This document shows positions 3,534 through 24,408 of a DNA stretch of 64,000 nt, piece after piece. The DNA lies in assembly GCA_035506215.1 (NCBI GenBank), contig DATJPW010000191.1:5689-69688 (forward strand). Direction: 5' to 3'. Numbering within the stretch: position 1 is the first letter of the stretch; every line of letters starts with the position of its first letter. The translations under genes and the position numbers were made by a program. The notes below the pieces were generated by a model. That model worked only from the letters and a program-made list of their open reading frames with translations, made no database searches and had not been told where the DNA came from. This DNA is from Desulfomonilaceae bacterium (GTDB lineage: Bacteria; Desulfobacterota; Desulfomonilia; Desulfomonilales; Desulfomonilaceae).

Positions 3534-3557
3534 AAGCGAAGTGAAGAGAAAAAAGGT

Positions 3558-3615
3558 CTTGGGGAAAACTTTTTTGCAAAAAAGTTTCCCCCAAACCCCC
3601 TTCAAAAAACTCTTG
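3558..3615 (+). repeat. REP/MITE-like palindromic element, copy 1 (forward orientation)
   Basis: Hairpin GGGGAAAACTTTTTTGCAAAAAAGTTTCCCC followed by CAAACCCCCTTCAAAAAACTCTTG. Starts 24 nt after the apgM stop. Confidence 0.85.
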
Positions 3616-3768
3616 ATTAGGCGAGTCGAGCAATTACGTTGCCCAGACATACTGGCGCAACAAAGACTATGTGCCTCTTGTAAGCCTCGCCACTCGGTAA
3701 GGGTAGACCAACTGAGAGTTTTCTTCTTTCTCGTTCCCAAGCGGGAGCCTGGGACCGAGAACTATTTT

Positions 3769-3826
3769 AGGAGTTTTGGGGGAGGGGTCTGGGGAGGGCG
3801 TTTTTGCAAAAACGTCCTCCCCAGAA
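3769..3826 (-). repeat. REP/MITE-like palindromic element, copy 2 (reverse orientation)
   Basis: AGGAGTTTTGGGGGAGGGGTCTGGGGAGGGCGTTTTTGCAAAAACGTCCTCCCCAG is the reverse complement of the family consensus. Lies in the 5' region of the GSCFA gene. Confidence 0.85.
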
Positions 3827-3853
3827 TTCCCTGCCTGCCTCGGAGGCACGAAG

Positions 3854-4813
3854 ATGGCTCGTTCGGATGTTCATCCCACACATTCTTTTCAGTCGTGGCA
3901 GGTTTGGCCGGGCTCTTACGACAATGCAAAGCTTGACAAGTCATGTCTCCGGCCTCTCGGGTGTGATCTAAGGATCTCAAAATCTACCCGCATTGCGTCC
4001 ATGGGTTCCTGCTTCGCCCGTGAAATCAAGAACGTACTCATCAGAGAAGGATTTTCGTACATAACCGAAGAAACGCATCACCCGGCGGCTATTCACGCCA
4101 GTGCGGCTTGGGAGCGGGTTTATAACGTCTTCTGTATGCGCCAGATTTTCGAGTACACCTTCGGGGATTGGAATGCTGCTAAGCGGTGGTGGGAAGCGCC
4201 CGTGTCAGGAAAGATCCAGGACCCGTTTCGAAGAATAGTGCTCTATGACACCCTCGAACAGGCCGAAGCGGACTTCGTGACCCACAAACTCTGCTCCCGG
4301 AGTGCCCTGGAGAGGGCTGAGGTCCTGATTCTGACACTGGGCCTGACCGAGATCTGGGAGGATGCGATCGATGACTCGGTCATCTGTTTGCCGTCAGGCC
4401 CGTACGTCAACGAAGGCGGCGACATGGGCCGCTACCGATTCCGAGTGAGCAGATATGCAGAGAATCTGGAAAATCTTGAACGTATTCATCAAATCATGGC
4501 GTTGCACAATCCGGCGTGCCGCATCATTATCACTGTGTCGCCGGTTCATCTCTGGGCGACGTTTCGTGAAGATTCCGATGTGATCAGTGCGAGCTGTAAT
4601 TCGAAATCTACACTCCGGGCCGTAGCAGACGAGTTCGTCGCTCGTCACGAAAACGCGTACTATTTTCCGGCCTTCGAGATGGCGACCATATACCAACCGA
4701 TGATGGGCCGGCCCATCTTCGCCGAAGGCAGAGAGAACTTCCATGTCAATAGCGAAACAGTGGAACTTATCATGAAGGGTTTCTTCGAGTTCTATTGCGA
4801 TGATAATCAATAA
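3854..4813 (+). CDS. GSCFA domain-containing protein
   Basis: Literal GSCFA motif (IASMGSCFAREIKN) near the N-terminus. Start chosen at ATG 3854 behind GGAGG at 3842-3846; the longer track ORF begins inside repeat copy 2. Confidence 0.75.
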   Translation: MARSDVHPTHSFQSWQVWPGSYDNAKLDKSCLRPLGCDLRISKSTRIASMGSCFAREIKNVLIREGFSYITEETHHPAAIHASAAWERVYNVFCMRQIFEYTFGDWNAAKRWWEAPVSGKIQDPFRRIVLYDTLEQAEADFVTHKLCSRSALERAEVLILTLGLTEIWEDAIDDSVICLPSGPYVNEGGDMGRYRFRVSRYAENLENLERIHQIMALHNPACRIIITVSPVHLWATFREDSDVISASCNSKSTLRAVADEFVARHENAYYFPAFEMATIYQPMMGRPIFAEGRENFHVNSETVELIMKGFFEFYCDDNQ

Positions 4814-4966
4814 TTTCCAGCCCCCGAACTTTGCTCTTTTTCAGAATCAACAGTGAACCGGAACGACACTCAGTTTGTGGAGCAAAAAAAAGTTTTTTTG
4901 GATTTTCTGACCATTTCTTTCAAGTCGTTACCTCTCATTCCGAGAATTTGCTTTAATATCGCCTAG

Positions 4967-4996
4967 TTGACAATTTCCTTAATAAATTGATAGAAT
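4967..4996 (+). promoter_or_regulatory. sigma70-type promoter candidate
   Basis: TTGACA (4967-4972), 18-nt spacer, TAGAAT (4991-4996). Confidence 0.5.
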
Positions 4997-5003
4997 TAGC
5001 CTC

Positions 5004-6155
5004 GTGGGGAGGGAAATCCCTTTTGTGAGGATTTTCATCCCCATGCGTGTTTTTGCGGAGCCTATGCCGCGAGATTGCTGCCAACAGTTGGGGTCAGCTT
5101 GTTCGCGTCACGGTTTGCCGGAACCGGATTCAAGAATGCCGGGTGACTCATTTTCTCTCCGCATCGCTCGGGGCTCGGAAAATCACCACAAAGAAGTTTT
5201 ATTGCCTTGTTGGGGAGGGAACCGGAGAGGGCGTTCTTATAAAGACGTCCTCTCCAGCAATTTTTCGAAAATTTTATTGGTCGCAGTGGTTCTATCGCTT
5301 TGCTCTTGCACGCTCATGAGTCAGTCTCCTTATTTGACCCAGAATACCCAGGTGCCTATTCTTGAAGACGGTTGCGGGCTGGTCACGTCGCTCAACGGCC
5401 AGGTGCCGTATCAGAGATGGCGGGTCCCTCCTTGGGACATTGACATGCAATACGTGTGGCTCGTGGGCAATTACGACTTCAGAAAATACGACCGGGTTGA
5501 GATGATCCTTTACTTTCACGGCACACAGCCCAAGGACTATTACCCGGTTTTTCGCAAAGAACTTGAACAGCTTGCGCTGAAGCGACCGGACCAGCCATTT
5601 GTGTTCGTGGGTATGGTAGACAAACCTCAAATAGAGCCTGAATGCGGAAATCAAGACCGTTGGGGCATCTTGGCGCCCAAAAGAGGTGAACCGCCGGAGG
5701 CTCTGTTCCAAGTACTGAACCAGATTTTCAGGGCTTTTCGGACAAGATTCCCTAACATCAGGAAAGACAATACTCACATTGTGCTGTCAGGCTTCTCCGG
5801 TGGAGGAAAGGTGTTAAGCGCAATAGGCAACTGGCTGGCCCGCACCGACAAAGAAGATCCGTACGCAGAGGTTTTTAGGTCCCGATTGAGCAAAATCGTC
5901 TATTTTGATTGCTGGTTCGACAAAGATGTGGTCGAAACCGTACCCGCATTACTGGAAAGCAACCCGGACATGAAGATAGTGGGAACGGTCCACATGAAAA
6001 AGCCTCTTGAGCACGCCTCCATGCTCGCCAACAAATTTGGAATGAAAGCGGACAAGCAAAAACGCGAATTGGTCGGCCTGGACGGCAGACTAACCATCTA
6101 TCGGAACGATTCCCACTGGGAAGCCATGATCGGCAGACTCAAAGAAGCCCTCTGA
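5004..6155 (+). CDS. putative lipoprotein with alpha/beta-hydrolase-like serine motif (start uncertain)
   Basis: GFSGGG nucleophile-elbow-like motif (IVLSGFSGGGKV) and a lipobox-like VVLSLCSC. The first ~85 codons of the track ORF cover repeat copy 3 and look non-coding, so the real start is probably around 5271-5319 (TTG 5277, GTG 5286 or ATG 5319). Confidence 0.5.
   Translation: MGREIPFVRIFIPMRVFAEPMPRDCCQQLGSACSRHGLPEPDSRMPGDSFSLRIARGSENHHKEVLLPCWGGNRRGRSYKDVLSSNFSKILLVAVVLSLCSCTLMSQSPYLTQNTQVPILEDGCGLVTSLNGQVPYQRWRVPPWDIDMQYVWLVGNYDFRKYDRVEMILYFHGTQPKDYYPVFRKELEQLALKRPDQPFVFVGMVDKPQIEPECGNQDRWGILAPKRGEPPEALFQVLNQIFRAFRTRFPNIRKDNTHIVLSGFSGGGKVLSAIGNWLARTDKEDPYAEVFRSRLSKIVYFDCWFDKDVVETVPALLESNPDMKIVGTVHMKKPLEHASMLANKFGMKADKQKRELVGLDGRLTIYRNDSHWEAMIGRLKEAL
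5207..5257 (-). repeat. REP/MITE-like palindromic element, copy 3 (reverse orientation, diverged loop)
   Basis: GGGGAGGGAACCGGAGAGGGCGTTCTTATAAAGACGTCCTCTCCAG. Same architecture as the family, but the centre is TTATAA instead of TTGCAA. Confidence 0.7.
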
Positions 6156-6183
6156 TATCTTCTCCATTTCCCGAAACAAACGC

Positions 6184-6214
6184 TTGACCTGTCTATAGCT
6201 TCATAGTTCAAGAT
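6184..6214 (+). promoter_or_regulatory. possible long-spacer (MerR-type) promoter upstream of the merB-like gene
   Basis: TTGACC (6184-6189), 19-nt spacer containing CTATAG, then CAAGAT (6209-6214). Weak -10; speculative. Confidence 0.2.
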
Positions 6215-6328
6215 TCGTCTCTGCCGAGGGCCGCGGCACATCTCGTCGTAACGAACCGTGATCACGACCGCTTTTCAGATCAAGGTTCTCCGGCCGCGGA
6301 TATCATTTCGCATGAGGAGGCATTTGCC

Positions 6329-7090
6329 GTGAAAAACAAAATAATGATCGGCCTCTGGCGGTTTATGTTGAATGTTCCCCCATCGCTGTGGGAGAAACGG
6401 ACTCTTAAGGCAAAACAGAAATTTGCAACAGAATTTGGCTTCATGTCTGGTGAGCATCGATCAGTTCACCATTATGTGGTCAGGGAACTTCCGTATTACG
6501 GAAAGCCGTTACATCCGGAAAGCATCTCCGACAAATTGGGGCTCCCAATTGACCGGGTGAACGCCATCCTGGACGACCTGCAAGAGCATATGACATTTCT
6601 GTTCAGAAACGACCAAGGAGAAGTTGTTTGGGCCTACCCTGTAACTGTTGATAAAACGCCTCATCAAGTGACTTTTAACACCGGTGAACAATTGTACGCG
6701 GCCTGAGCTGTTGACGCGTTTGCGACGCCCTTCGTGCAAGGGCGATTGAGGCAAGAACACATTTCGGTTATCGTCAATACTGAATGCGCTCATTGCGCTC
6801 AACCCATGGAAATCGTTATCGACAGCGAGCTGCAATTCAGCGTGAAGCAGGAAGGCTGCGAGCCGATCGTCTTTATACCTGACGTAGATTTGTTTAAGCT
6901 TGAAGACGAAAGCATCATCAATGCGTTCTGAAACGAGAGCGTCTTCTTCTGGTCAGAAGAACATGCAAAAGATGATCGTAGAAAAGGACAGAGAGTGCGA
7001 GGAGCATACCTAACGGCTACGCAGATGGCACGGGGCACCAAGATAATTCAGAGCGCAATTTTCGGCTTTGACGCTGCAGTCCTTCCCTGA
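6329..7090 (+). CDS. MerB-like organomercurial (alkylmercury) lyase family protein with two predicted selenocysteines (TGA 6704-6706 and TGA 6929-6931 read as Sec)
   Basis: One continuous frame from GTG 6329 (GAGGAGG 8 nt upstream) to TGA 7088-7090, interrupted only by two TGA codons. Read-through gives LYAA-U-AVDAFATPF (MerB LYAWC96ALD99TLIFPAL) and NAF-U-NESVFFWSEEHA (MerB SFC159CHVHFFASVPTAEDWA), plus a MerB-like wHTH N-terminus and ECAHC (MerB SSHC117). A hairpin follows each TGA. Confidence 0.7.
6726..6744 (+). promoter_or_regulatory. SECIS-like hairpin 1
   Basis: 7-bp stem CGCCCTT/AAGGGCG with loop CGUGC. The stem starts 19 nt after TGA 6704-6706. Confidence 0.5.
6939..6966 (+). promoter_or_regulatory. 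SECIS-like hairpin 2
   Basis: Upper 7-bp stem TTCTTCT/AGAAGAA (6944-6950/6955-6961) with loop GGUC. Lower 4-bp stem 6939-6942/6963-6966 across a C-C mismatch. The first loop G is at +23 from the U of UGA, as I recall for E. coli fdhF. Confidence 0.55.
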
Positions 7091-7256
7091 AGCTCTCTCT
7101 TGTAATGGCTTCACTGAAGAAATCGCAGAGAACCGGAGGTTACAACAGATCCGCGCATGAGCGCGGAAGCCGCTACTAGTGGATTGTCAGCGTTCCGGTC
7201 CACCTCTGCGGTAGACGATTGCTATAAGTAATAGTATTGTAGCGTCAGGGCGAACC

Positions 7257-7820
7257 ATGTACACCATCGGAAAATTGGCCAAGAAGTTCGGGCTCTCGCG
7301 AAGTACTCTTTTGTACTATGATTCCATAGGATTGCTCAAACCCAACTCGCATACTCAGGCGGGTTACAGACACTACTCCGAAGATGACGCGAAGCGTCTG
7401 GAGCAAATCTGCCTATATCGCCGCGTCGGATTATCGCTCAAAAACATTGCGAGAGCGCTGGATTTTCCAGAAAACCGCCTCACAACTGTTCTGGAAAAGA
7501 GACTTCAAGAACTCAACGAGGACATACAACAACTGCGCGAACAGCAACGATTCATTGTGGGGATATTGAAAAACAGCGACCTATCTAGGAACATCGGGGT
7601 GATGAACAAAGATACGTGGACCTCCATACTGGCAGCGTCCGGCTTCACCGAAGAAGATATGCGGCGGTGGCACATCGACTTTGAGCGCCTTTCACCACGA
7701 AAGCATTTAGAATTTCTGCAATTTTTGTGTATTCCTGAAACGGAGATCGGGATCATCCGGTCGTGGTCTTCATCCGCTGGGAACGAAAGAGCGCATCATT
7801 CGAGTCAGTTTTGCGACTAA
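7257..7820 (+). CDS. MerR-family transcriptional regulator
   Basis: N-terminal MerR HTH (YTIGKLAKKFGLSRSTLLYYDSIGLL...GYRHYSEDD) and a coiled-coil (LQELNEDIQQLREQQ). No cysteines where the Hg-binding triad of MerR would sit. Confidence 0.8.
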   Translation: MYTIGKLAKKFGLSRSTLLYYDSIGLLKPNSHTQAGYRHYSEDDAKRLEQICLYRRVGLSLKNIARALDFPENRLTTVLEKRLQELNEDIQQLREQQRFIVGILKNSDLSRNIGVMNKDTWTSILAASGFTEEDMRRWHIDFERLSPRKHLEFLQFLCIPETEIGIIRSWSSSAGNERAHHSSQFCD

Positions 7821-7901
7821 TGTTGCGCGTTCCCGTCGGATTCACTTTCACCCCGATGCTAAACACTGATAGGCCCGATGCAACTAGCTGGGAGGCTTGG
7901 C

Positions 7902-9026
7902 ATGTCCTATGACGATATCTCAGTTCTACACTCCGGAGATGAATACGGCAACGACATGGTCGTAAAGATCTCTTTCACCAGCGGCCGGGAAATTCTCGCT
8001 CTGGCCACCAGGAACCTATACTCAGGTGATTGGGACTTCGGACCTACTTGGAATTATGTGATCAAATCAGACAAGTCTTTCCTCGTGGATACCGGTAGAA
8101 GAGGAAGGGGCCTGCAGCTCATGCAGATGATGGAAAACTCCGGGACCAAAGTTAATGATCTGGACTTCGTGATCCTCAGCCACGGTCACGAAGATCATGA
8201 CGGCGGCCTGTTTGCCTTGAATCAGACGGCCGGTCTGGAAATCATGGCTCACGAAACTTATGAGGCGCTTAGAGAATTTTCGCCAGAGCGGGCGCCGTCA
8301 ACACGGGTGGAGCGCTATCCCGCCTCTTGTTGGCATTGCCCTTTGTCAGAAAGCTTTGCGGAAAAGAATTGCAGTGAGTACCACAAGGAGCGGCGCTCGC
8401 TCAAAGTGACTTCCATCAGCCAAGAGAAGCATGATCTCGGCCAAGGAGTCTCTTTGTTTCATGTTCCCGGGCACTCACCGGATTGCATCGCTCTTCTGCT
8501 CGACGACGAGGTGATCCTCACCGGCGACACGATCCTCCCAGAGATCACTCCGCACCCATCGAGGGCGCATTACTTCGAAAGCACGCAATGCATGTTACCT
8601 CCGCATTATGCGGACACGAACCGGCTTTACGGATTGGATGTATACATTCGGTCGGTGAAGCGACTAATTGGGATCGCGGGCAGATTTCCGAACCTTACGG
8701 TTTTACCGGGCCACAGATTTTTTAACGACAGTAAATGTAACCTGCTGGATCTCGGCGCCCGCTGCAACGAGTTGATTCAACATCATATCCAGCGCTGCTC
8801 TGATTTCGTGGATCTTGTTCGTTCAGGGCCCAAGACACCTGAAGAGATTGCCCACGAATATTTTGAACCGGAATTGCTTTCGGGGTTCGGTATCAATCTT
8901 GCCCTAAACGAAGTGCTCAGTCACTGTGAACTCATGGAATTGAGTGGGGATATCATCTGGACTGACGGCAAAGTCATTTCCACCGGGACCAGGAATTCCG
9001 AGGCTTTCATCAGGAACATTGAGTAG
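7902..9026 (+). CDS. MBL-fold metallo-hydrolase
   Basis: HGHEDHDGG (HxHxDH) motif. Start at ATG 7902 behind GGGAGG. Confidence 0.75.
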   Translation: MSYDDISVLHSGDEYGNDMVVKISFTSGREILALATRNLYSGDWDFGPTWNYVIKSDKSFLVDTGRRGRGLQLMQMMENSGTKVNDLDFVILSHGHEDHDGGLFALNQTAGLEIMAHETYEALREFSPERAPSTRVERYPASCWHCPLSESFAEKNCSEYHKERRSLKVTSISQEKHDLGQGVSLFHVPGHSPDCIALLLDDEVILTGDTILPEITPHPSRAHYFESTQCMLPPHYADTNRLYGLDVYIRSVKRLIGIAGRFPNLTVLPGHRFFNDSKCNLLDLGARCNELIQHHIQRCSDFVDLVRSGPKTPEEIAHEYFEPELLSGFGINLALNEVLSHCELMELSGDIIWTDGKVISTGTRNSEAFIRNIE

Positions 9027-9072
9027 AGTTACGGAGTAGATCCTTGGGCAGCAAAACACCGCACTGCCACCG

Positions 9073-9438
9073 CTAAAGCATGCGATAACAAACTCCCAGG
9101 ACAGTAGCAGCCTCTGCCAGGCGACGGTCTGAGGTCCAAAGGGAAATGTCCGAAATCACCGCGGAACCAAGCAGGTGAACGTCTACATACGCCAGGCCCT
9201 TACCCATCAAATGGTTGTTTTCGATGAAAGTCAGTATTTCTTCGTGACTTGCCACCTCTGCTGGCGGAAGGTCATGCAATAGTGACAAGATTTCAATTCG
9301 GTTCGTGAGATTTCCACATGCCAATTCGCCGATTACAAATGGGTGACACCACACCACCCCTTCATTGAGCAAGTCGGCCAGCCGATCGTTCCCCTCGCGC
9401 AGATGCGAGACCCAAATAGAAGTATCTACCAGGACCAT
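9073..9438 (-). CDS. vapC: type II toxin VapC (PIN domain ribonuclease)
   Basis: MVLVDTSIWVSHL N-terminus typical of PIN/VapC, 121 aa. The start lies 1 nt after the vapB stop. Confidence 0.85.
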   Translation of the reverse strand: MVLVDTSIWVSHLREGNDRLADLLNEGVVWCHPFVIGELACGNLTNRIEILSLLHDLPPAEVASHEEILTFIENNHLMGKGLAYVDVHLLGSAVISDISLWTSDRRLAEAATVLGVCYRML

Positions 9439-9439
9439 C

Positions 9440-9646
9440 TCAGACGTCCTCGGTTGTTCGTCGCCTCGGCTGTTCTAAGTTCTTTTCGGTTCCGCCGAGT
9501 TTGGCTAATCTCCTGCCGCTTTCGCGGGCTATCAAGGCCTCCAGGCCCAGCCTCACCAGAGAAGTTTTTTGCTTAACCCCCGTGAGCTTCGATGCTTTCG
9601 CGATCAAGTCATCCTCGATGATCAAAGTAGTCCTCATGGCACGCAC
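9440..9646 (-). CDS. vapB: type II antitoxin VapB
   Basis: MRTTLIIEDDLIAKA... antitoxin signature, 65-68 aa, directly upstream of vapC. The start may be the second ATG, at 9637. Confidence 0.8.
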   Translation of the reverse strand: MRAMRTTLIIEDDLIAKASKLTGVKQKTSLVRLGLEALIARESGRRLAKLGGTEKNLEQPRRRTTEDV

Positions 9647-9667
9647 TCCCGGTATATGGAATAAAAT

Positions 9668-9683
9668 ATGTATAATTATGCAT
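9668..9683. promoter_or_regulatory. near-perfect 16-bp palindrome, candidate VapB operator/promoter
   Basis: ATGTATAATTATGCAT (two mismatches from perfect dyad symmetry), about 25 nt upstream of vapB in an AT-rich stretch. Confidence 0.35.
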
Positions 9684-9912
9684 CATTCATATGTATTTAG
9701 CAAGGCCCTAAGGATGGGTGAACAACGGAAGCCGCATCGCTCCACTTCTTTTCGTGAGTTAGCTCGGTGGGGCGCTCGATTCAACGCATCCTATGGGCTC
9801 CATCCATAATACCCAGTTAATACAATGCCTTACCCACACCGCTTCCTTGACTGCTTCCTATAGATGTGTTATAAATGGTTCCGCGGAAACGGTTTCGCGT
9901 CGGAGTGATAGC

Positions 9913-14666: not shown

Positions 14667-14682
14667 GGGGTGTGTACCGACC

Positions 14683-16706: not shown

Positions 16707-16722
16707 GAAGATAGCATTGGCT

Positions 16723-16787
16723 AAGAGTTTTCTGGGGGACACTTCTTTGCAAAAAAGTGTCCCCCAGACCCCCTTCAAAAAACTCCT
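16723..16787 (+). repeat. REP/MITE-like palindromic element, copy 4 (forward)
   Basis: AAGAGTTTTCTGGGGGACACTTCTTTGCAAAAAAGTGTCCCCCAGACCCCCTTCAAAAAACTCCT. Terminal inverted repeat AAGAGTTTT/AAAACTCCT. Starts 16 nt after the stop of the + strand gene. Confidence 0.9.
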
Positions 16788-16929
16788 GTACGATAGCCGC
16801 GAACCAACAAGTAGACGAGAGGCTTGGTTGACCGCACACGTAGTTAATCGTGCGGGGCCTCAAAATTGACACACTCTGTTATGGTCCCACGCTGTTGGTC
16901 GGGTCTTGCCCGCCGTGTCACAAATATAT

Positions 16930-16993
16930 AAGAGTTTTTGGGGAGGGGCTTGGGGAAGGCGTTTTTGCAAAAATACCCTCACCAAGAACTCTT
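16930..16993 (-). repeat. REP/MITE-like palindromic element, copy 5 (reverse)
   Basis: AAGAGTTTTTGGGGAGGGGCTTGGGGAAGGCGTTTTTGCAAAAATACCCTCACCAAGAACTCTT. Perfect 7-bp termini AAGAGTT/AACTCTT. Ends 4 nt from the stop of the - strand multicopper oxidase gene. Confidence 0.85.
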
Positions 16994-16997
16994 GAAA

Positions 16998-18620
16998 CTA
17001 TATTCCTCGTCGCGGGAGCGGGGGGTCTCCTTCGACGACCAGAATAGCCATACCGGTAGCCAAGTGCCACTCAATATGGCAATGAAAGAACCAGAACCCG
17101 GGATTATCGGCCTCCCACTGCACGACAGCCCAAGACTTGCGGGGTATGCTGAGAGTATCTTTTTGGATGGGATCTCTCTCGTTAAGGGCTTGCCCGTTAT
17201 AGTTGCCTGCGTCTTCGGCTCCCACCCCCAGCACGTGGAAGTAGTGTCCGTGCAGATGAAATGGATGACTCATCTTTGATTGATTGTTAATAACCAGGCG
17301 AACGACATCCCCTTGCTTGAGTCTCATTTGTGTGACAGGTGGGTCCGGCGGATTCCGGTCCGCTGTCAACGGTTTCTTGGGCAACTCGAAGATCTGTCCG
17401 TTGACCATCCACTTGTACGGCATCATCGACCCTGTGAGTAGGAGGAGCTTGTTCGTCGTTGGCCCCGTAATCTTCCGGAGCGCATACGGCTTGAGGTCCC
17501 CCAACTTGAGAGACGCGCCCCAGGTGGCTTTTGTCTGGGGCAGCGCTTGAGGAGCGCCTTTGTATCTTAGCACCGCAAGAGCATGGTCTTCTCTATTCTC
17601 CTCCAGAGTTTTGGCTCGAATCCAATAATTAGCCGCGGGCCGGTCTGCGTTCACGACAACATCGTATCGCTCCCCAACGTCGATGATCAGGTTGTTCACA
17701 TCGAGGGGCCTGGTCAGTGCGCCGTCAGTGGCAATGACGGACAGTTTGTGTTCGTCAATGGCAAATCGGAATGCGTAGGTGGATGAGGCATTAATGATCC
17801 GAAATCGAATTCGATCCTTCGCTTTGACTTCATAAGTTTCCAGAGGCCCTTCAGAGCTTGAATCAAATCTTCCCTTACCGTTGATCAAGGCCGATTCAAA
17901 CGGCACGTCACCAACATCGGGCATACCTTCCGAGTCCATGTCCATCATCATTTTCGCACCTTTTTTGTCGGTAGCCGTGCCCATGTCCATTTTCATACCT
18001 TTTTGCTCAGAGGTCATGCGCATGTACGCACCCCTTTTCAGGTTCGCCAAAATCTGTTCCGCGGGGATGTGGAACCAATCGTTGATCATGATGATGCGAT
18101 CGTAATCGTAGTCGTTCTTATATGGATCGTTGTTTTCTTCGATGATTAAAGGGCCGAACAACCCGTCGGAGTACTGGAGTCCGGCGTGAGAGTGATACCA
18201 ATGAGTCCCGGCCGGATAAGCCCTGAATCTGTATGTGTAGCAATCGCGGGGTTGAATGGCGGCCTGCGAGATCCTCTCCACACCATCCATAAACCAGGTA
18301 CCGTTCTGGTGCATGCCGTGCCAGTGTATCGTGGTTGGTTGCGGCAAGTTGTTGCACAAGGTAACTGCGATCTCCTCACCTTCCTTGGCACGTATCGTGG
18401 GACCTGGAAACATGCCGTTTATCGCCAGGATGCCTCCTTCTTTTGGCTTTGAGTCTGGCCATTTTGCAGGCTTCAGTATCCCCGTTTTGAATTCAAATTG
18501 TCTCTTACCTTCCTGTGCCGCCATGACGAGCGGTAAGGTCCCGCGCCGTATGAGCGCTACGCCGGTCAGACCTGCCGCTACGATAAGGAACTTCCTCCTT
18601 GTCAGAGTAATTGCGCCCAT
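16998..18620 (-). CDS. multicopper oxidase (Tat-exported, CueO/laccase-like)
   Basis: Copper-site motifs HWHGMHQ, HSHAGLQ, HPFHLHGH and HCHIEWHLATGM. Twin-arginine leader TRRKFLIVAAG. Confidence 0.9.
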   Translation of the reverse strand: MGAITLTRRKFLIVAAGLTGVALIRRGTLPLVMAAQEGKRQFEFKTGILKPAKWPDSKPKEGGILAINGMFPGPTIRAKEGEEIAVTLCNNLPQPTTIHWHGMHQNGTWFMDGVERISQAAIQPRDCYTYRFRAYPAGTHWYHSHAGLQYSDGLFGPLIIEENNDPYKNDYDYDRIIMINDWFHIPAEQILANLKRGAYMRMTSEQKGMKMDMGTATDKKGAKMMMDMDSEGMPDVGDVPFESALINGKGRFDSSSEGPLETYEVKAKDRIRFRIINASSTYAFRFAIDEHKLSVIATDGALTRPLDVNNLIIDVGERYDVVVNADRPAANYWIRAKTLEENREDHALAVLRYKGAPQALPQTKATWGASLKLGDLKPYALRKITGPTTNKLLLLTGSMMPYKWMVNGQIFELPKKPLTADRNPPDPPVTQMRLKQGDVVRLVINNQSKMSHPFHLHGHYFHVLGVGAEDAGNYNGQALNERDPIQKDTLSIPRKSWAVVQWEADNPGFWFFHCHIEWHLATGMAILVVEGDPPLPRRGI

Positions 18621-18928
18621 TTTGAAATTCCTCCCAGGAGTGCCGTTAAGACTTGTGTACGATCAAGGTCCGATGACCTTGGCAGCGTGCCGCACTTCGA
18701 CACCCTTCTCCCTATAGACATGCAATGTGGTCATTCGATCTTGCGCGTCCGTCATTCCCGCGTGTGCAGGAACCCGGAACGAATTGTGGTGGACATTCGG
18801 TTACCCAATGCTGTTAAATTAAGGCGATTGACATATGGCGGATGCCAACATGAGGCGTCGGACGCATGTGTTTATCAATGGCGGATTATCAGTTGCCTAT
18901 GGACAATGAAAAGGAGAAGGAAATAGCC

Positions 18929-19351
18929 ATGGCTCGCGGGATCGTTTGTCTGGTCGCATTTAGTCTGGTTTTCTTGGTCAGCGCTGCAATGGCAGCGGAT
19001 TCAGAGAAGGAAACGGCTGCGGTTGCAGCGGCTGAGAAATGGTTGGCCGTAGTTGACCAAGGAAGATACGCTGAAAGTTGGCAGGAAGCGGCAGAGTACT
19101 TCCGCACAGCAGTTGGAAAAGAACAGTGGGAGCAGGCCCTGCTGGCGGTGCGGAAACCTCTTGGCAACCTCATATCGCGGAAAGTGAAATCAACGACGTA
19201 TACGACCTCGCTGCCGGGCGCTCCTGATGGCCAGTATGTCGTGATCCAGTTTGAGACCTCATTCGCAAACAAGAAAGACGCGGTGGAGACCGTAAGCCCC
19301 ATGATGGACAAGGATGGGAAGTGGCGGGTCTCCGGCTATTACATCAAGTAA
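18929..19351 (+). CDS. DUF4019 domain-containing secreted protein
   Basis: Signal peptide MARGIVCLVAFSLVFLVSAAMA; AEKWLAVVDQGRYAESW ... GKWRVSGYYI pattern. Confidence 0.65.
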   Translation: MARGIVCLVAFSLVFLVSAAMAADSEKETAAVAAAEKWLAVVDQGRYAESWQEAAEYFRTAVGKEQWEQALLAVRKPLGNLISRKVKSTTYTTSLPGAPDGQYVVIQFETSFANKKDAVETVSPMMDKDGKWRVSGYYIK

Positions 19352-19447
19352 TCAAAGCAGGAACCGGGTATGCGAACCTGACAGGATGAGGTTAGTGGAG
19401 CAGATTTCATCCTGGAGAGCCTACCCGCGACAAGAATTCAGCAAAGA

Positions 19448-19927
19448 ATGAGCGTACACAGCGCGGGTATTCTTCTATTCAGATTCAAGAACAAGAAGCT
19501 CGAAGTCCTGCTTGTTCACCCTGGTGGACCCTACTGGTCAAGAAAAGACCAGGGCGCCTGGTCTATCCCCAAAGGAATATTCGAAGAGAACGAGAATGCG
19601 CTGGATGCGGCGAAAAGAGAATTCATGGAAGAGACCGGCCATGAAGTTGAAGGTGAATTCATCGAATTGGGCGAATTGGAGCAGCCTAGCAGAAAAATAG
19701 TTCACGTCTGGGCGCTCGAAAAGGACATCGATGAAACAAAAATAAAGAGCAACACTTTCACAATAGAATGGCCGAAGAATTCCGGGAAAATAAGAGAGTT
19801 TCCCGAGGTAGATAAAGGCGGTTGGTTCGGTTGGGATGAAGCGAGAACTAAGATGGTAAAAGGCCAAGTTAGCTTCCTGGACCGGCTCGCGAAGAAAATA
19901 AATTACGTTCCGCCCGGAAAGGAGTGA
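19448..19927 (+). CDS. NUDIX hydrolase
   Basis: Nudix box GIFEENENALDAAKREFMEETG. Confidence 0.85.
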   Translation: MSVHSAGILLFRFKNKKLEVLLVHPGGPYWSRKDQGAWSIPKGIFEENENALDAAKREFMEETGHEVEGEFIELGELEQPSRKIVHVWALEKDIDETKIKSNTFTIEWPKNSGKIREFPEVDKGGWFGWDEARTKMVKGQVSFLDRLAKKINYVPPGKE

Positions 19928-19933
19928 CCAACC

Positions 19934-20248
19934 ATGATAGCGAGACATTGGAGAGGGATCGCCAAATCCGGGCAGGCCGACACTTATGTCCACCATCTTA
20001 GGACCGACACTTTTCCGAAACTTTCAAGAATCACCGGATTTATTAGAGCGTACATCCTGAAAAGGGAAGTCCACCAGGGAACAGAATTCCTAATAGTAAC
20101 AGTTTGGGAATCAATGGAGGCAATTGAACGCTTTGCAGGCGCAACAACAGATGTGGCTGTGGTTCCTGATGTCGTTCAAGCCATGATGGTTGAATACGAT
20201 AAATATGTCAGCCATTATGAGGTCGCGGAAACTTACGCACCTGCCTAA
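19934..20248 (+). CDS. antibiotic-biosynthesis-monooxygenase (ABM)-like dimeric alpha/beta-barrel protein
   Basis: 104 aa; ...FLIVTVWESMEAIERFAG pattern typical of ABM domains. Confidence 0.55.
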   Translation: MIARHWRGIAKSGQADTYVHHLRTDTFPKLSRITGFIRAYILKREVHQGTEFLIVTVWESMEAIERFAGATTDVAVVPDVVQAMMVEYDKYVSHYEVAETYAPA

Positions 20249-20285
20249 CCCGAAATCGATTTCCATTCCAACGAGGAGTGGAGGA

Positions 20286-20764
20286 ATGAACAGAAGAGAA
20301 TTCTCAGAAAGTGGAGGGCCTGCCAGCGGCGATCCTGTCACAGGTCCGGACAATTTAGCAAAGGCTGAGGAGAAAAAAGCCGATCATTTGATCAAACTGG
20401 TGTTCTGCGCTAGACGTCATCCCAGTATGTCGCGTAGCGAATTCCAACAGTACTGGTTAAACCATCACGGACCTTTGTTCCAGAAATTCGCTAGACCTAC
20501 CGGGCAGTTCGTTACGTGCAAAGCCACACCATCGATTCGCCATTGAACGAGAACCTCAAGAAATCAAGAGGATTGTCCGAGGAGCACGACGGAGTAGGCG
20601 AAATCTGGTGGCGGTCCGAACAGGACTTTCTTGCGGCAATTGCTTCTCCGGAAGGTCAGAAACTGCGCGCGATATTCATTGAAGACGAAAGCAAATTCAT
20701 CGACTTGAGTGCTTCGTCAGCATTTTTCACTGTCGAGCACGTTCTCGTTGACCGCGGCACTTGA
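20286..20764 (+). pseudogene. EthD-family protein gene interrupted by a frameshift
   Basis: The N-terminal half (KLVFCARRHPSMSRSEFQQYWLNHHGPLFQKFA) is in the frame ending at 20546. The C-terminal half (RYVQSHT...DGVGEIWWRSEQDFLAAIASPEG...) is in the -1 frame, open from 20495 to 20764. Confidence 0.6.
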
Positions 20765-20876
20765 CACGGACCGTTTCTTTTCATTCGGAACGGTATGGCG
20801 GAAAAGCCGACGTGAAAGCCTCTTTTTCTGCGGAAACAGCTCTGACTTCAGATCTCCAATAGCAGGCTTTCTGAAC

Positions 20877-21695
20877 ATGATTCAAATCGAGCACGCTGGT
20901 GAGGTTACAAAGTTCAGGTTGGCCCGCACTCTTTTCGGCCGAGGCTTGTATTTTACCGCGGCATATCTGGTGGACGGCCTCATGGTGGACACCGGATGCG
21001 CGTATACGGTCCGTGAACTGACAGACGCGTTGAAGGACTCGAAAATACACACCATTGTCAACACGCATAGCCATGAAGATCACGTGGGAGCCAACGCAGC
21101 GCTGCACGCGCAATTCGGTACACGAGTCCTTGCTCACCAACATGCTTTGCCTATCATGGAAGAGCCAGGGAAAGTGCGCCTCCGGCCATATCAGCGTGTC
21201 ATGTGGGGTTACCCGGAACCCTGCCGAGCCGAATCCGTCGGCGACTCGGTGGAGACGGAACACCACCTTTTCCGAATCATATATACGCCAGGCCACAGTC
21301 CGGACCACATATCCCTCTTCGAGCCTGATCGCGGATGGCTGTTCACGGGCGACGCATACGTAGGTGGCCGAGACCGGGCCCTACGGCTTGATTACAATGT
21401 CTGGCAGATCATCGATTCTTTGAAGAAACTGGCCTCACTTGACCCGCAGGTCATCTATGCCGGAAGTGGTTCCATTAGACGCGACGCTCGAAAGGAATTG
21501 GAGGCTAAAATTCAGTACTTGGAAAAGACCGGAGAACTGGTCGTGGCGTTGCACCGAAAAGGTTGGAGCAGACGCCGCATCCGTCTGGAAGTTCTGGGCC
21601 GCGAAATGCCGATAGCGCTCTATACCCTTGGCCATTTCAGCGGGAAGAACCTTATACGCTCGTATATAGAGGACTACGAAGTCGTCTGTTTCTGA
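20877..21695 (+). CDS. MBL-fold metallo-hydrolase
   Basis: THSHEDHVGAN (HxHxDH) motif; start at ATG 20877. Confidence 0.75.
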   Translation: MIQIEHAGEVTKFRLARTLFGRGLYFTAAYLVDGLMVDTGCAYTVRELTDALKDSKIHTIVNTHSHEDHVGANAALHAQFGTRVLAHQHALPIMEEPGKVRLRPYQRVMWGYPEPCRAESVGDSVETEHHLFRIIYTPGHSPDHISLFEPDRGWLFTGDAYVGGRDRALRLDYNVWQIIDSLKKLASLDPQVIYAGSGSIRRDARKELEAKIQYLEKTGELVVALHRKGWSRRRIRLEVLGREMPIALYTLGHFSGKNLIRSYIEDYEVVCF

Positions 21696-22087
21696 GGGGG
21701 ACTCACAATAACCCTGTACAAAGCCATTCCCACCATCAGGTCCCCAACGAGAATCGCAATATCCGGAAACATCGACTCGATCAGCCAGGCCAATGGTTGC
21801 TCCCTGGGACTAACTTTGATCCACCCCTCGAGGGTGGACACAATGGTCAGGTCAGTCATCATTATGATGCCCAGATACGCCAAGAAGCTATTGAGCAATA
21901 AGGCCCACAAGGCCGTCTTTCTGAAAAGAAACAGAATGCTGACCAGGACCAGGTCGGCGGAGGCAAATAGAGTAGCCCAGAAATTGGTCAAATTGGCCAG
22001 GGGAGGATGTATCCTATCGTGAAGAATGAATGCTCCAATGGCAAAGCCGACGAGCGCGATCCACAATTGCACGCGCTGTGTGTTCAT
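21674..22087 (-). CDS. hypothetical integral membrane protein
   Basis: 137 aa with about 4 hydrophobic helices; GAGGTGG upstream of the ATG. Confidence 0.45.
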   Translation of the reverse strand: MNTQRVQLWIALVGFAIGAFILHDRIHPPLANLTNFWATLFASADLVLVSILFLFRKTALWALLLNSFLAYLGIIMMTDLTIVSTLEGWIKVSPREQPLAWLIESMFPDIAILVGDLMVGMALYRVIVSPPQKQTTS

Positions 22088-22096
22088 GATGCCACC

Positions 22097-22204
22097 TCAC
22101 TGGAAATGGACTGAATAACCAAGTAAAAACAAGGCGCTGATAACAATTACATGAAGGATTATCCAACCGGGCTTCAGGAACAAGATCTGTTGGATCATTT
22201 CCAT
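22097..22204 (-). CDS. small hydrophobic peptide (35 aa), hypothetical
   Basis: MEMIQQILFLKPGWIILHVIVISALFLLGYSVHFQ. Its ATG overlaps the stop of the upstream small ORF by 1 nt. Confidence 0.3.
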   Translation of the reverse strand: MEMIQQILFLKPGWIILHVIVISALFLLGYSVHFQ

Positions 22205-22320
22205 CACCTCGCCAAAAGCGTTGATAATAAGCGGCCTGCGGTATACACGACGGTGAATCCTATGAAATGGACCACCCACCACCTGAAACTAAGAAAGCCC
22301 CATTTTTTCGGCATCTTCAT
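22204..22320 (-). CDS. small hydrophobic peptide (38 aa), hypothetical
   Basis: MKMPKKWGFLSFRWWVVHFIGFTVVYTAGRLLSTLLAR; GAGGAG upstream. Confidence 0.3.
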   Translation of the reverse strand: MKMPKKWGFLSFRWWVVHFIGFTVVYTAGRLLSTLLAR

Positions 22321-22748
22321 AGTCCCATCTCCTCTTTTCCCCCCAAAATATGCACCGGTTTCAAGCTTGATTGTAATGGTTGAGTGCCCCCCGAGCAGTC
22401 GGCAAGAACTGACGTTATGCTTCAATCAGGATAGCACAATCTCTTTTTCTAAGACAATCCTTACCGAGATGCATAAGAAACCATCCAGTTACTAGTGGCG
22501 AAAGATTGTCATTGAGAGCGAATCGATAGGAGCGCATGGCATGCGTCCTTGTCTCGCGAAACACCTGATTGGTTCGGTAGAGGCCGGCGTCCCTGCCGGC
22601 TCATCATTTCCGCACCGGCACGGAGGCCGGTGCCTACCGATCAGGATACCCCGCATTCCGCGGCGTCTGACGGAAATGGAGATCTCTTCGTCGCTGTCAC
22701 TCGTCGGAATGACGAAAAACCAAAGATTTTCTCCCGGGACTTTACTCC

Positions 22749-23696
22749 CTACCCTTCGTCCCGTCCCGCCCGGATTCTTGCCGGTGATAATTCGTCTTTT
22801 TCACTCTGAACCTGCAGCAGTACAATGGCCGCTATAACGAAAACTCCGCCGATGATTTGGAGAGGATCGAGTGTCTCCCCAAGCAAAATGAACGCAATAA
22901 AACCAGCAGAGATGGGTTCGACGGTCGATGTTATGGTTGCGCGGGTTGAGCGAATATAATTCACCCCGACGAAGAACAGGCCAAAAGGTATAATGGTGCC
23001 GAATATGGCTATGTAGAGCATGTATATCCACTGTTCGGCCGTGTATGCGAAGTAGACAAAGTGAAGCGGAGGTTGGAGAATGTTCCAGGTCAACGCAGCG
23101 AAAACTAAAGCATAAAGCACGACGGTCCAGGGCTGGTAACGGTGCATAACTCGTTCACCCAGGAGACTATACAATGCAAAGAGAACCGCGGAGGCCAAAC
23201 CCGCCAACGCGCCGTCCCGATTCACATTCAGCAACTCCAGATTGTACCCGCCTACTACGAGATAGCATCCGAAAAGTGACAGCAACAGCGCGATGACTTT
23301 GATTGCGGTCAATCGCTCATGCCAAAAGCCTATGGAATACGCGGTCACGAACACCGGCGAGGTGTATTGAATCAGGATCGCAGCCGCCACTTGCATTTTG
23401 CTTATGGTGTACAGGTATGCAGCCTGAACTAGAGCCAATCCCACGCCGCCCAGAACCAGGAAATAGGCTATGTCTTGCGTGCGGATCCTCAAGCGTTGTT
23501 TTGTGAATAGCCTCAGGAACAGCCCCAAGGAAAAAGCCGCAATTGTCAGACGGATCTGAACCAACTGGAAAGGCGTTACGCCTCCAAGAAAAAGCGCTTT
23601 GCTAACAGTGCCCGATGATGCCCATAAAACTGCGGCCGCTATCACGCTCAGGTAGCCTATTACAGGGTTCGTCAATATGCGTCGCGTTTCTGGCAT
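22749..23696 (-). CDS. EamA/DMT-family transporter
   Basis: About 10 TM helices; start placed at ATG 23696 (MPETRRIL...). Confidence 0.7.
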   Translation of the reverse strand: MPETRRILTNPVIGYLSVIAAAVLWASSGTVSKALFLGGVTPFQLVQIRLTIAAFSLGLFLRLFTKQRLRIRTQDIAYFLVLGGVGLALVQAAYLYTISKMQVAAAILIQYTSPVFVTAYSIGFWHERLTAIKVIALLLSLFGCYLVVGGYNLELLNVNRDGALAGLASAVLFALYSLLGERVMHRYQPWTVVLYALVFAALTWNILQPPLHFVYFAYTAEQWIYMLYIAIFGTIIPFGLFFVGVNYIRSTRATITSTVEPISAGFIAFILLGETLDPLQIIGGVFVIAAIVLLQVQSEKDELSPARIRAGRDEG

Positions 23697-23830
23697 CTCG
23701 CTTCTCACGGCGCCTCCGTTTTTTTCATGTAACCGAAAAGTCGTTGCGCTCACTAAAGTATCAGGGGACACGATGATCGATCAACGATTTGTCTCACACA
23801 AACTTTTTACACGTTTTCCGGAGGGAATAC

Positions 23831-24331
23831 ATGAACACAATGAAAATCGGGATGGCCATGGTCCTGGCACTGGCGGTCATGAGCCTAGCCGCGACCTGTT
23901 CGGCGGTTGAACCGGCTGGAAAAAGCGATGGTGAGGCATTTTGCGGATCACCGTTGGCAAAGCTTGTAATGGGGAACATCGGCCGATTCCTCGTCCTCAG
24001 ATCTGAGCTAGGGCTAACAAATGACCAGAGAAAAAAGATCGCTGGAATCGTGAAGAGCCACCGTGACGAAATCCGACCGGTTGCCAAAGCTCTTCTTGAA
24101 AAGAGACGGGCGGTTAGGGAAGCGGTGATCAACAAGCCGGGCGATGAAGCTGCTATTCGCACGGCAGCGACAGACCTAGGCCAAGCCATTGGAGATGCGT
24201 CAGTTCTGGCATCTAAAGTGGGAGCTCAGGTGAAACCGGTGCTTACACCGCAACAAGTGGAACGGATCGAAAACTTCAGGGCAGCCACTCAAAAGGCCAC
24301 ATCAGACTGGCTGGACCAAATGGGCAAGTAG
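23831..24331 (+). CDS. Spy/CpxP-family periplasmic protein (LTXXQ motifs)
   Basis: Signal peptide MNTMKIGMAMVLALAVMSLAATCSA; LTNDQRKKI and LTPQQVERI motifs. Confidence 0.7.
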   Translation: MNTMKIGMAMVLALAVMSLAATCSAVEPAGKSDGEAFCGSPLAKLVMGNIGRFLVLRSELGLTNDQRKKIAGIVKSHRDEIRPVAKALLEKRRAVREAVINKPGDEAAIRTAATDLGQAIGDASVLASKVGAQVKPVLTPQQVERIENFRAATQKATSDWLDQMGK

Positions 24332-24344
24332 GATAGGAAACGGT

Positions 24345-24408
24345 AAGAACGTTTGGAGAGGCCCTTTTTGTAAAAAGGGCCTCCCCAAACCCCTCCCCAA
24401 AAACTTCC
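24345..24408 (+). repeat. REP/MITE-like palindromic element, copy 6 (forward)
   Basis: AAGAACGTTTGGAGAGGCCCTTTTTGTAAAAAGGGCCTCCCCAAACCCCTCCCCAAAAACTTCC. Starts 13 nt after the stop of the Spy-like gene. Confidence 0.8.

Follow-up and report, generated by a model that had tools for sequence, protein, structure and literature searches.

A lineage-specific intergenic repeat family of Desulfomonilaceae with a compensated hairpin and a mirrored, co-varying tail

Six repeat units in a 64-kb window

The stretch of DNA analysed here (the window) comprises 64,000 nucleotides of contig DATJPW010000191.1 (C191; C and L numbers are our handles for contigs and loci), which belongs to a metagenome-assembled genome (MAG) of the Desulfomonilaceae (assembly GCA_035506215.1; 5.56 Mb in 403 contigs, 51.8% G+C); for one of its proteins, the closest named relative is from a Desulfomonilaceae MAG. 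A preliminary description of this window had reported six copies of a short palindromic element sharing one architecture. All six are present where it had placed them: five are clear and one, at 5207-5258, is degenerate. We show here that they belong to a family of units in which a hairpin, kept by compensatory changes, is followed by a C-rich tail that mirrors, and co-varies with, the 3' arm of this hairpin. This mirror covariation is the notable new point; it had been missed by the preliminary description, as had the polarity of the units relative to genes and their tail-to-tail pairing.

By convention, a unit is forward when the hairpin precedes the tail. Three units of the window are forward (3543-3614, 16723-16787 and 24344-24408) and three are reverse (3770-3826, 5207-5258 and 16930-16993). 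A repeat finder links the six copies as direct and inverted matches of 50-64 nt, and the tail motif CCCCNNACCCCYYCMMMAAAAC has five matches in the window, compared to none in 100 shuffles. The units, their parts and the spacers between paired units are the following:

3543-3614, + strand: unit 1, non-A type; 5' flank GAAGAG at 3543-3548
3559-3594, + strand: hairpin of unit 1, arms TTGGGGAAAACTTTTTTG/CAAAAAAGTTTCCCCCAA
3595-3614, + strand: tail (putative third strand) of unit 1, A-CCCCCTTC-AAAAAA-CTCTT
3615-3769, no strand: spacer between units 1 and 2, which stand tail-to-tail; its first ~60 nt are kept among congeners and the remainder is unalignable
3770-3826, - strand: unit 2, type A; on the + strand, tail complement AGGAGTTTTGGGGGAGGGG at 3770-3788 and hairpin at 3789-3826
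5207-5258, - strand: unit 3, degenerate; on the + strand, tail complement TTGTTGGGGAGGGA at 5207-5220 and hairpin ACCGGAGAGGGCGTTCTTA/TAAAGACGTCCTCTCCAGC at 5221-5258
16723-16787, + strand: unit 4, non-A type; 5' terminus AAGAGTT at 16723-16729 and hairpin at 16731-16768 (TCTGGGGGACACTTCTTTG/CAAAAAAGTGTCCCCCAGA)
16769-16787, + strand: tail of unit 4, CCCCCTTC-AAAAAA-CTCCT
16788-16929, no strand: spacer between units 4 and 5, which stand tail-to-tail; it lies between convergent genes
16930-16993, - strand: unit 5, type A; on the + strand, tail complement AAGAGTTTTTGGGGAGGGG at 16930-16948, hairpin at 16949-16986 and terminus AACTCTT at 16987-16993
24344-24408, + strand: unit 6, type A, solo; 5' flank TAAGAAC at 24344-24350 and hairpin at 24352-24389 (TTTGGAGAGGCCCTTTTTG/TAAAAAGGGCCTCCCCAAA)
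24390-24408, + strand: tail of unit 6, CCCCTCCCC-AAAAA-CTTCC

All the units of the window are intergenic, their neighbours being apgM, a GSCFA-family gene and genes for a cyclophilin-like protein, a multicopper oxidase, a Spy/LTXXQ-like protein and an ECF-type sigma factor. The hairpin of unit 1 begins 25 nt downstream of the apgM stop (3533), and that of unit 2 ends 28 nt upstream of the ATG of the GSCFA-family gene (3854), which has a ribosome-binding site, GGAGG, at 3842-3846. Unit 3, with a profile score of 32.3 bits, has a tail without the A5-CTC end and falls within an over-long open reading frame (ORF) call, 5004-6155. Unit 4 lies downstream of the cyclophilin-like gene (stop 16706), just 4 nt separate unit 5 from the end, on the stop side, of the multicopper oxidase gene (minus strand, 16998-18620), and unit 6 takes up almost all of the 85 nt that separate the Spy/LTXXQ-like gene (stop 24331) from the sigma factor ORF (24417).

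For annotation, the consequence is that the units yield false ORFs and over-long gene starts. ORFs crossing the units (3541-3936, 16938-17279 and 5047-5319) have no Pfam match, in agreement with the earlier suggestion that such ORFs are spurious. The 5' end of the gene called from 3776 had likewise been suspected to be inflated, and alignment of the orthologues places the true start of this GSCFA gene at 3854. In Rfam, no unit had a match at the gathering threshold, and at E <= 1 there were just weak matches to microRNA hairpins, far below threshold.

The hairpin is maintained by compensatory changes

The ~70-nt unit has four parts: an AAGAGT terminus, a hairpin of 17-19 bp, the tail or putative third strand on its 3' side, and a matching ACTCYT terminus. 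The hairpin is centred on TTTGCAAA (T5-GC-A5), and its 5' arm opens with a homopurine run, such as GGGGAGG, GGGGAAAA or GGAGGAAA, among others. The inverted termini recognized earlier stand as a family-wide consensus, AAGAGT...ACTC(C/T)T, but this consensus is imperfect; the 5' flank has the consensus (G/T)AAGAG(T), followed by 2-6 nt. The length of ~30 nt first given for the hairpin has to be revised: because the outermost three pairs (TCT/AGA, CCG/CGG, TTT/AAA, GCT/AGC) also co-vary, the hairpin measures 36-40 nt and the tail begins directly at the foot of the stem.

Stem covariation was tested on 75 diverse copies (alignment A2), with a stem of 17 pairs and 500 shuffles. Paired cells amounted to 87.4%, compared to 73.1 ± 0.7% after shuffling. 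Changes on both sides were found in 15 of the 17 pairs, with 216 such cells against 70.8 ± 7.8 in the shuffles. The covariation score was 0.433 vs 0.174, a value reached in none of the 500 shuffles, and was far lower when the partner column was slid. Pairing is thus conserved, and the stem changes are compensatory, as the preliminary description had proposed from the six copies. As DNA, five of the six units tested fold at -16 to -19 kcal/mol (z = -4 to -6), unit 1 being weaker (-13.5 kcal/mol, z = -2.3); in the fold of unit 4 (-18.8 kcal/mol, z = -5.65) the termini are paired and the tail is an 11-nt bulge. The folding tools consider Watson-Crick pairs only. Given these compensatory changes, what is conserved is a single strand in folded form or a cruciform.

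A G-T pair on one strand, equivalent to an A-C mismatch on the other, had been noticed in copies 2 and 3 and taken to indicate an RNA or single-stranded DNA structure with a preferred strand. The asymmetry exists in these two copies but is not general: over 181 copies, the stem mismatches on the tail-bearing strand are 79 G.T/T.G vs 85 A.C/C.A, and no strand is favoured. As the mismatches have no strand bias, the argument for a preferred strand fails.

At one locus (L051:2855-2935), a single unit has the outer part of its 3' arm tandemly duplicated (GTCCCTCCCCGA twice).

The tail mirrors the 3' arm of the hairpin

The C-rich tail is the mirror of the 3' arm, i.e., the parallel complement of the purine 5' arm. 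When the first 20 nt located 3' of the stem were aligned in 32 copies of this genome, the mean score was 9.4 for the mirror of the 3' half, compared to 6.4 for a direct copy, 4.3 for the reverse complement and 4.5 for the complement, and the mirror beat the direct copy in 30 of the 32 copies. The tails scored 9.38 with their own hairpin, versus 7.20 ± 0.31 when they were permuted, a value reached in none of 5000 permutations. For 82 copies that were not ascertained through the tail, the parallel-complement prefix was 4.99 vs 4.23 ± 0.12 and exceeded all 2000 permutations.

The two parts also change together. In the parallel register between the 5' arm and the tail, columns 20-24 gave a covariation of 0.450 vs 0.251 (none of 500 shuffles), the unslid register being the best. 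The near-invariant columns of the G-run gave 0.156 vs 0.092 (again none of 500 shuffles), yet slid registers score higher there. In the antiparallel register, no covariation was detected in alignment A2 (70.9% vs 70.7%, 183 of 500 shuffles). The possibility that the tail is a competing 3' arm, pairing antiparallel with the 5' arm in an attenuator-like manner, was rejected on account of this absence of covariation.

The A-runs follow the same rule. A G inside the inner A-run recurs in the A-run of the tail (18 copies have both, 9 the inner G only, 4 the tail G only and 142 neither; odds ratio 71, p = 2e-14). In 16 of these 18 cases the interrupting G is at the mirrored position, with four different offsets: AGAAAA goes with AAAAGA, for example, and AAAAGAG with CAGAAAA. 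The lengths of the inner and tail A-runs are correlated (rho = 0.86), and a G beside the A-run in the 3' arm corresponds to a C in the tail. At least six stem lineages follow the mirror rule. In the alignments described above, the mirror describes the tail better than a direct repeat of this arm does, and the asymmetric A-run variants contradict a direct repeat.

We asked whether the mirror relation could lack structural meaning, as a by-product of low-complexity blocks (C-, T- and A-runs) and of a few subfamilies that inherit stem and tail jointly. The blocks are homopolymeric, the copies are related by descent and the match is imperfect; moreover, type A cannot separate a mirror from a direct repeat because GGGGAGGGG is its own mirror. 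However, the asymmetric variants, with their four offsets, reject a direct repeat, the parallel register beats the shuffles whereas the antiparallel register does not (columns 20-24 also beat the slid registers), and the rule is obeyed across the six or more stem lineages. We consider this explanation very improbable. We give equally little credence to the alternative that, in place of a triplex, the hairpin would have as its competitor a G-quadruplex of the G-rich strand (GGGGAGGGG-TCT-GGGGAGGG) or an i-motif of the C-rich one. Type A units do have four G-tracts on the bottom strand, separated by loops of 1-3 nt, but the non-A units (GAAGGGGG-TTT-GGGGGAAAC) share the same architecture with two G-tracts only, and the covariation of the A/T positions and of the distant A-run would be left unexplained.

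We know of no copying process by which a mirror, that is a reversed but uncomplemented sequence, arises. Triple helices require exactly such a mirror relation.

Units are kept at orthologous sites and turn over elsewhere

In four congeneric species with a coding identity of ~72-78%, both units of the apgM-GSCFA intergenic region are kept at the same places, and most of the spacer cannot be aligned. Unit 2 has an almost invariant hairpin, with two single-base differences across the five species. Unit 1 displays a three-way change in the congeners: the 5' arm goes from GGGG to GGAGG, the 3' arm from CCCC to CCTCC and the tail from CCCCC to CCTCC. In one congener (L022:2030-2072), the purine-rich 5' flank of unit 1 has grown to a (GAA)n tract.

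Other orthologous intergenic sites bear a unit in relatives and none in this genome, which indicates turnover. Insertion boundaries could not be read from these orthologous empty sites, the intergenic DNA being too diverged at ~75% coding identity.

Units are oriented relative to genes and pair tail-to-tail

All the units analysed in this genome and in relatives are intergenic, and they have a polarity. In this genome, the median distance to the nearest gene end is 24.5 nt on the hairpin side, whereas on the tail side non-coding DNA extends for a median of 188 nt; the hairpin is turned towards a stop in 18 units and towards a start in 14. For 95 units of relatives, the medians are 41 nt on the hairpin side and 189 nt on the tail side, the hairpin being nearer in 70 of the 95 (p = 4e-6), and 60 units face a stop vs 35 a start. 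Overall, 78 of 127 units (61%) are stop-facing and 39% are start-facing. The hairpin of most stop-facing units begins 5-45 nt from the stop codon.

Neighbouring units less than 450 nt apart form 23 pairs, of which 20 are tail-to-tail, none is head-to-head and 3 are tandem, with spacers of 57-182 nt. Thirteen of the 20 tail-to-tail pairs combine a type A unit with a non-A unit. The spacers are unrelated between loci, except for the partner units and between orthologues; on this ground, a tRNA or small RNA gene in the spacers was rejected. At L043:1693-1900 and L102:4324-4560, the inverted repeat of the pair runs past the tails (TATATGGCTGGCGGAACCAC ... GTGGTTCCGCCAGCCATATA), and a TATATGGCTGGCGG extension is also present 3' of many solo units (in this genome, C341:34460 and C51:52782).

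The A/T-rich box that follows the tail (CTCC-TATAAT-like) was considered as a promoter, but a consensus scan of the two pairs (units 1 and 2, units 4 and 5) found no sigma-70-like promoter, either at the units or between them, and the -24/-12 spacing of a sigma-54 promoter misfits by eye. In the spacer 16788-16929, the scan detected neither a sigma-70-like promoter nor a U-tract terminator. Regarding intrinsic terminators in general, the stem is followed by a C/A-rich tail and by no U-tract; units 1 and 3 are the only ones that the scan flags, owing to their local flanks.

The placement of the units bears on whether they act as RNA elements of untranslated regions (UTRs), serving after stops as a 3'-end barrier or a terminator devoid of U-tract, and before starts as a 5'-UTR stabiliser. 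After stops, the C-rich tail would fold back into a pyrimidine-motif RNA triple helix, as in ENE/MALAT1 3'-end protection, or would be a Rho-loading or anti-Shine-Dalgarno-like patch; tails such as ACCTCCTTC presumably resemble the 3' end of the 16S RNA, the gene of which is absent from the assembly. The very stable hairpin, its short distance to the stop codon and the majority of stop-facing units would agree with such a role, and pyrimidine-motif intrastrand triplexes can form in RNA (PMC4666352). However, where units face starts the mRNA is the G-rich strand, and the purine motif does not form triplexes in RNA (PMC4666352). In addition, G.U is not in excess over A.C on either strand, the stem is not followed by a U-tract and the matches of the terminator scan are inconsistent, and the BoxC/PIT repeats of E. 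coli, discussed below, have no promoter or terminator activity (PMC4666352). We therefore regard an RNA-level function as unlikely.

A lineage-specific family with variable copy number

A profile built from 12 copies and run on this genome with nhmmer retrieved 49 loci, ~40 of them clear, with many different stems, and we estimate ~45-50 copies for the genome. The type A tail motif was found in 13 of 24 other genomes of the same family, with 1 to 128 matches each, and in none of 16 genomes of the sister family; a reversed control pattern had no match in any genome. As estimated from this motif, copy number ranges from 0 to 128 among genera. A public scan with one genome per species returned at least 119 stretches with the motif, and, among the matches listed, nearly all were MAGs labelled Desulfomonilaceae, Desulfomonile, 'Syntrophaceae', Thermodesulfobacteriota or delta proteobacterium. 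A complete type A unit was also seen at L155:7600-7665, on a 31.9-kb contig filed as viral (IMG/VR IMGVR_UViG_3300013125_000682).

In this genome the units are not enriched at contig ends (3 of 47, vs 5.8% expected). In some relatives, many tail-motif matches are at most ~100 nt from contig ends, and the units may cause assembly breaks there. The family is a lineage-specific (Desulfomonilaceae) set of non-coding intergenic repeats of the REP (repetitive extragenic palindromic)/BIME kind, with the motif design of the BoxC/PIT intrastrand triplex.

Relation of the units to mobile elements

The copies had first been called REP- or MITE-like (miniature inverted-repeat transposable element). The former part of this designation holds, as they form a dispersed, REP-like intergenic family; the MITE status is not supported, as we detected no target-site duplication, no autonomous element and no cognate Y1 transposase or REP-associated tyrosine transposase (RAYT). 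The window had been said to contain no transposase and, indeed, no Y1 gene is present on its contig. A search for a RAYT or an insertion sequence (IS) with matching termini elsewhere in the genome had been suggested. Among its six Y1 genes we found none that is cognate: their flanks bear other hairpins (shared at C382, in REP-like clusters at C111 and C79), and none is near a unit. The 0.94 Mb of DNA surrounding units in relatives contains just one Y1 fragment, and another gene lies between it and the unit. Y1/RAYT-type genes are common in carrier and non-carrier genomes alike. A RAYT/IS200 link is rejected for the genes examined in these two sets.

In the flanks of 20 pairs, the mean longest common substring was 4.7, compared to 4.78 in controls, so no target-site duplication was detected, with the proviso that the ends are inexact and duplications of 2-3 bp are below resolution. 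No autonomous parent IS adjoins the ~230 units of this genome and of the relatives' loci examined. Each unit has terminal inverted repeats (AAGAGT...ACTCYT), and in pairs the whole units make up inverted ends of ~70-100 bp.

From these features the units could be viewed as ends of a non-autonomous transposon, the mobile entity being the tail-to-tail pair with its spacer (165-302 bp) and the solo units its remnants; by analogy with IS200/IS605 or with the guide sequences of RAYTs, the hairpin and the mirrored strand might be recognized by a single-strand transposase. This would account for the near-exclusive tail-to-tail arrangement of the pairs (20 of 23) and for the abutment of the hairpin, or outer, side on genes, and it would fit the presence or absence of units at orthologous intergenic sites and the range of copy number among genera. 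Moreover, the longer inverted repeat (TATATGGCTGGCGGAACCAC...GTGGTTCCGCCAGCCATATA) that reaches into the spacer of some pairs makes a composite mobile unit possible. However, the pairs are not flanked by direct repeats, the spacers of different pairs are mostly unrelated, the Y1 genes of this genome carry hairpins of another kind and none stands beside a unit, the one Y1 fragment found around units in relatives is not adjacent, and the apgM locus has retained its two units in each of the five congeners. A transposon origin of the present arrangement is, in our opinion, rather improbable.

A predicted alternate-strand triplex at gene boundaries

We propose that the tail would act as a third strand sitting in the major groove of the hairpin. 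On the C-rich strand, the tail repeats the 3'-arm pyrimidines in mirror order after ~3 nt: CCCCTCC would run parallel to the purine arm, with C+.G-C and T.A-T triads (class III, the pyrimidine motif, R-Y-H), and the orientation of the tail A-run relative to that of the opposite arm would be antiparallel (A.A-T, G.G-C). The G-rich strand would have G.G-C and A.A-T triads in its outer half, and T.A-T and C+.G-C triads in its inner half (class I, the purine motif, RH-R-Y; the classes follow PMC4666352). Because the purines of the inner half are on the other arm, and the polarity of the tail A-run, or of the T-run in the G-rich strand, suits the other triplex motif, one strand-switching third strand could read the whole stem. 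The product would be an alternate-strand triple helix, which in its G-rich strand form would need almost no protonated cytosine. The structure might arise where the DNA is transiently single-stranded or, driven by supercoiling, as a cruciform with triplex. The units stand at gene boundaries with the hairpin on the gene side, alone or as tail-to-tail heterotypic pairs, and might serve as topological or boundary elements, polymerase obstacles or protein landing sites.

Since both strands can fold, the mismatches are unbiased and the units face starts and stops alike, a structure at the DNA level is the most likely. On balance, we lean towards a structural role of the units as DNA at gene boundaries, with the hairpin and the third strand as the selected fold. 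It is a more tentative suggestion, which we consider possible but doubtful, that selection acts for an alternate-strand intrastrand DNA triplex over nearly the whole 17-19 bp stem, and that this triplex is used as an oriented gene-boundary device, such as a supercoil sink, a polymerase barrier or a protein landing site. From sequence comparison we infer that the triplex may form, that it may act as DNA and that it may have a role in the cell.

Several points weigh against this interpretation. The mirror match is statistical, not exact: many tails are off by one or two bases, and some GGGGAA stems have CCCCTCC tails. Because the copies are related by descent, the independent co-changes are far fewer than the counted cells. 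The conservation at orthologous sites and the three-way change of unit 1 could stem from gene conversion among copies and not from selection. At neutral pH, four or five successive C+.G-C triads are unfavourable. At the switch of the purine strand, 3 bp (CCC/GGG) face CC and make no standard triad. The tight spacing to the stop codon, with 61% of the units facing a stop, is also compatible with an RNA-level role. Finally, the triplex of the E. coli counterpart formed, and was stable, in vitro and was undetected in vivo (PMC4666352), and the one proposed here is deduced from comparisons of DNA.

If the triplex interpretation is true, this would be the first bacterial repeat family in which comparative three-way covariation shows the triplex as a conserved feature. 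The copies of BoxC/PIT/TMECO, repeats known for decades, are almost identical, and sequence comparison therefore could not tell whether their triplex is preserved. With diverse stems, and a tail that follows them in the triplex register and not in the register of ordinary pairing, the maintenance of intrastrand triplexes becomes directly testable, the natural A and non-A variants being ready-made compensatory mutants.

Comparison with known repeats and triplexes

The mirror relation of the tail and its covariation with the 3' arm place the family with the BoxC/PIT/TMECO intrastrand-triplex repeats, which occur in E. coli and other Proteobacteria and are present in 23 intergenic copies in E. 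coli K-12 with no link to mobile elements (Holder et al. 2015, PMC4666352; Hoyne et al. 2000, as cited there). The TMECO pattern is CCCTCNCCC-N3-6-GGGNGAGGG-N3-GGGNGAGGG, with loops of 1-6 nt; five inverted pairs, always of type A plus type B, are known, and TMECO is associated with local genome instability (PMC4666352). The blocks of the Desulfomonilaceae repeats follow each other as R-Y-H when the C-rich strand is read and as RH-R-Y when the G-rich strand is read; their parallel complementarity is significant and the antiparallel one is not.

Both families have three consecutive blocks on one strand: a purine block of 9 nt, rich in G/C and with one A, the block that forms Watson-Crick pairs with it and, beyond a 3-nt loop, a third block mirroring one of these two. 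Both are strictly intergenic, with tens of copies per genome and no transposase link, occur solo or as inverted pairs of two subtypes (A plus B there, A plus non-A in 13 of 20 here), and differ sharply in copy number between close relatives. However, the block order of BoxC/PIT/TMECO is Y-R-RH (classes II and IV), in contrast to classes III and I here. The hairpin of the present units is twice as long, with a variable, compensated middle and a T5-GC-A5 centre instead of a loop of 3-6 nt, and the third strand also mirrors the inner A/T half, which would imply alternate-strand recognition. The units further differ by their AAGAGT/ACTCYT termini, by their occurrence in a different phylum, by their polar placement at gene ends, whereas TMECO has no preferred distance, and by a natural three-way covariation, whereas TMECO copies are nearly identical. 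The TMECO consensus had no match in this genome; the first 'loop' is here a ~24-nt inner stem-loop.

BoxC-like Y-R-R block motifs occur elsewhere in this genome (C12:42286-42350, C22:1561-1595 and others), e.g., CTCTCCCCTCGCGGGAGAGGGAAGGGTGAGGGGGA, and a loose pattern gave 318 overlapping matches. Triplex-type repeats seem to be a general habit of this lineage.

With REP, BIME and REPIN elements, the units share short intergenic palindromes in tens to hundreds of copies, compensated stems, a head/tail asymmetry, inverted doublets of two subtypes (Y/Z in BIMEs) and a frequent position just after stop codons. Unlike them, they lack GT[AG]G at the 5' foot of the hairpin, flank no RAYT, the RAYT-like genes of this genome having their own, different REPs, and are larger (~70 nt), with a mirrored third strand. 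MITEs of the Correia and ERIC types resemble the units by their terminal inverted repeats, folding into long hairpins, intergenic location and presence or absence between species; the units differ from these in that no target-site duplication was detected, no parent IS was found and the internal spacers are unconserved between copies.

The pyrimidine strand carries a mirror repeat, CCTCCCC-NNN-CCCCTCC, as in H-DNA, with its homopurine-homopyrimidine mirror repeats. The third strand is of the (T,G) type (TTTTT-GGGGAGGGG) and has opposite it purine tracts of alternate strands, which recalls designed alternate-strand triplexes; designed (T,G) oligonucleotides illustrate the principle of a third strand that switches strands (de Bizemont et al. 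1996, listed in PMC2532714). In contrast to both, the purine strand here is a hairpin arm of the same strand, which makes a long duplex mirror repeat unnecessary; the arms, of 7-9 nt plus 5-6 nt, are short, and the element is natural, repeated and evolutionarily varied.

Other repeats in these genomes

The RAYT-like Y1 genes at C111:31196-32040 and C79:25514-26156 are flanked by their own clusters of REP hairpins (GGGCCGGCAGGGACGCCGGCCC / GCGCCGGCCTCCGTGCCGGCGC, and GGACCGGCAnnnTGCCGGTCC). They are ordinary REP-RAYT systems that coexist with the triplex-motif family.

A MITE of the classical type, distinct from the units, is ~170-190 bp long and bounded by the inverted ends CATAGGCGCTAACTT...AAGTTAGCGCCTATG. 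It was found in the following copies:

L054:5276-5560
L062:3975-4260
L023:1075-1330
L049, ~3270-3560 (reverse-complement coordinates, minus strand)
C122, C268, C304 and C374, in this genome

This MITE is inserted at the same spot, the junction between 3' arm and tail, in at least five independent units, so that the predicted turn of the triplex would be a preferred insertion target. Where both ends are visible, ~11 bp are duplicated at the insertion (e.g., CCCCGAACCCC, CCCCAGACCCC, CCCCCACCCCC), which exemplifies the signature of a true MITE in this lineage. Its interior bears BoxC-like triplex blocks, such as CCCTCCTTTGGTAAAGGAGGGACAGGGAGGA.

This genome contains 47 copies of a mini-hairpin, TCCCGCG-N3-8-CGCGGGA, compared to ~3 expected (e.g., C341:34617, C84:115, C162:36606, C285:14194 and, outside the stretch of the six units, C191:60653 in contig coordinates). 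This mini-hairpin is often nested in the loops of palindromic repeats of other kinds. In two congeners (L021 and L025), unit 1 has it instead of the GCAAAAAAG loop, and several units have it in their loop or tail (L110:3710).

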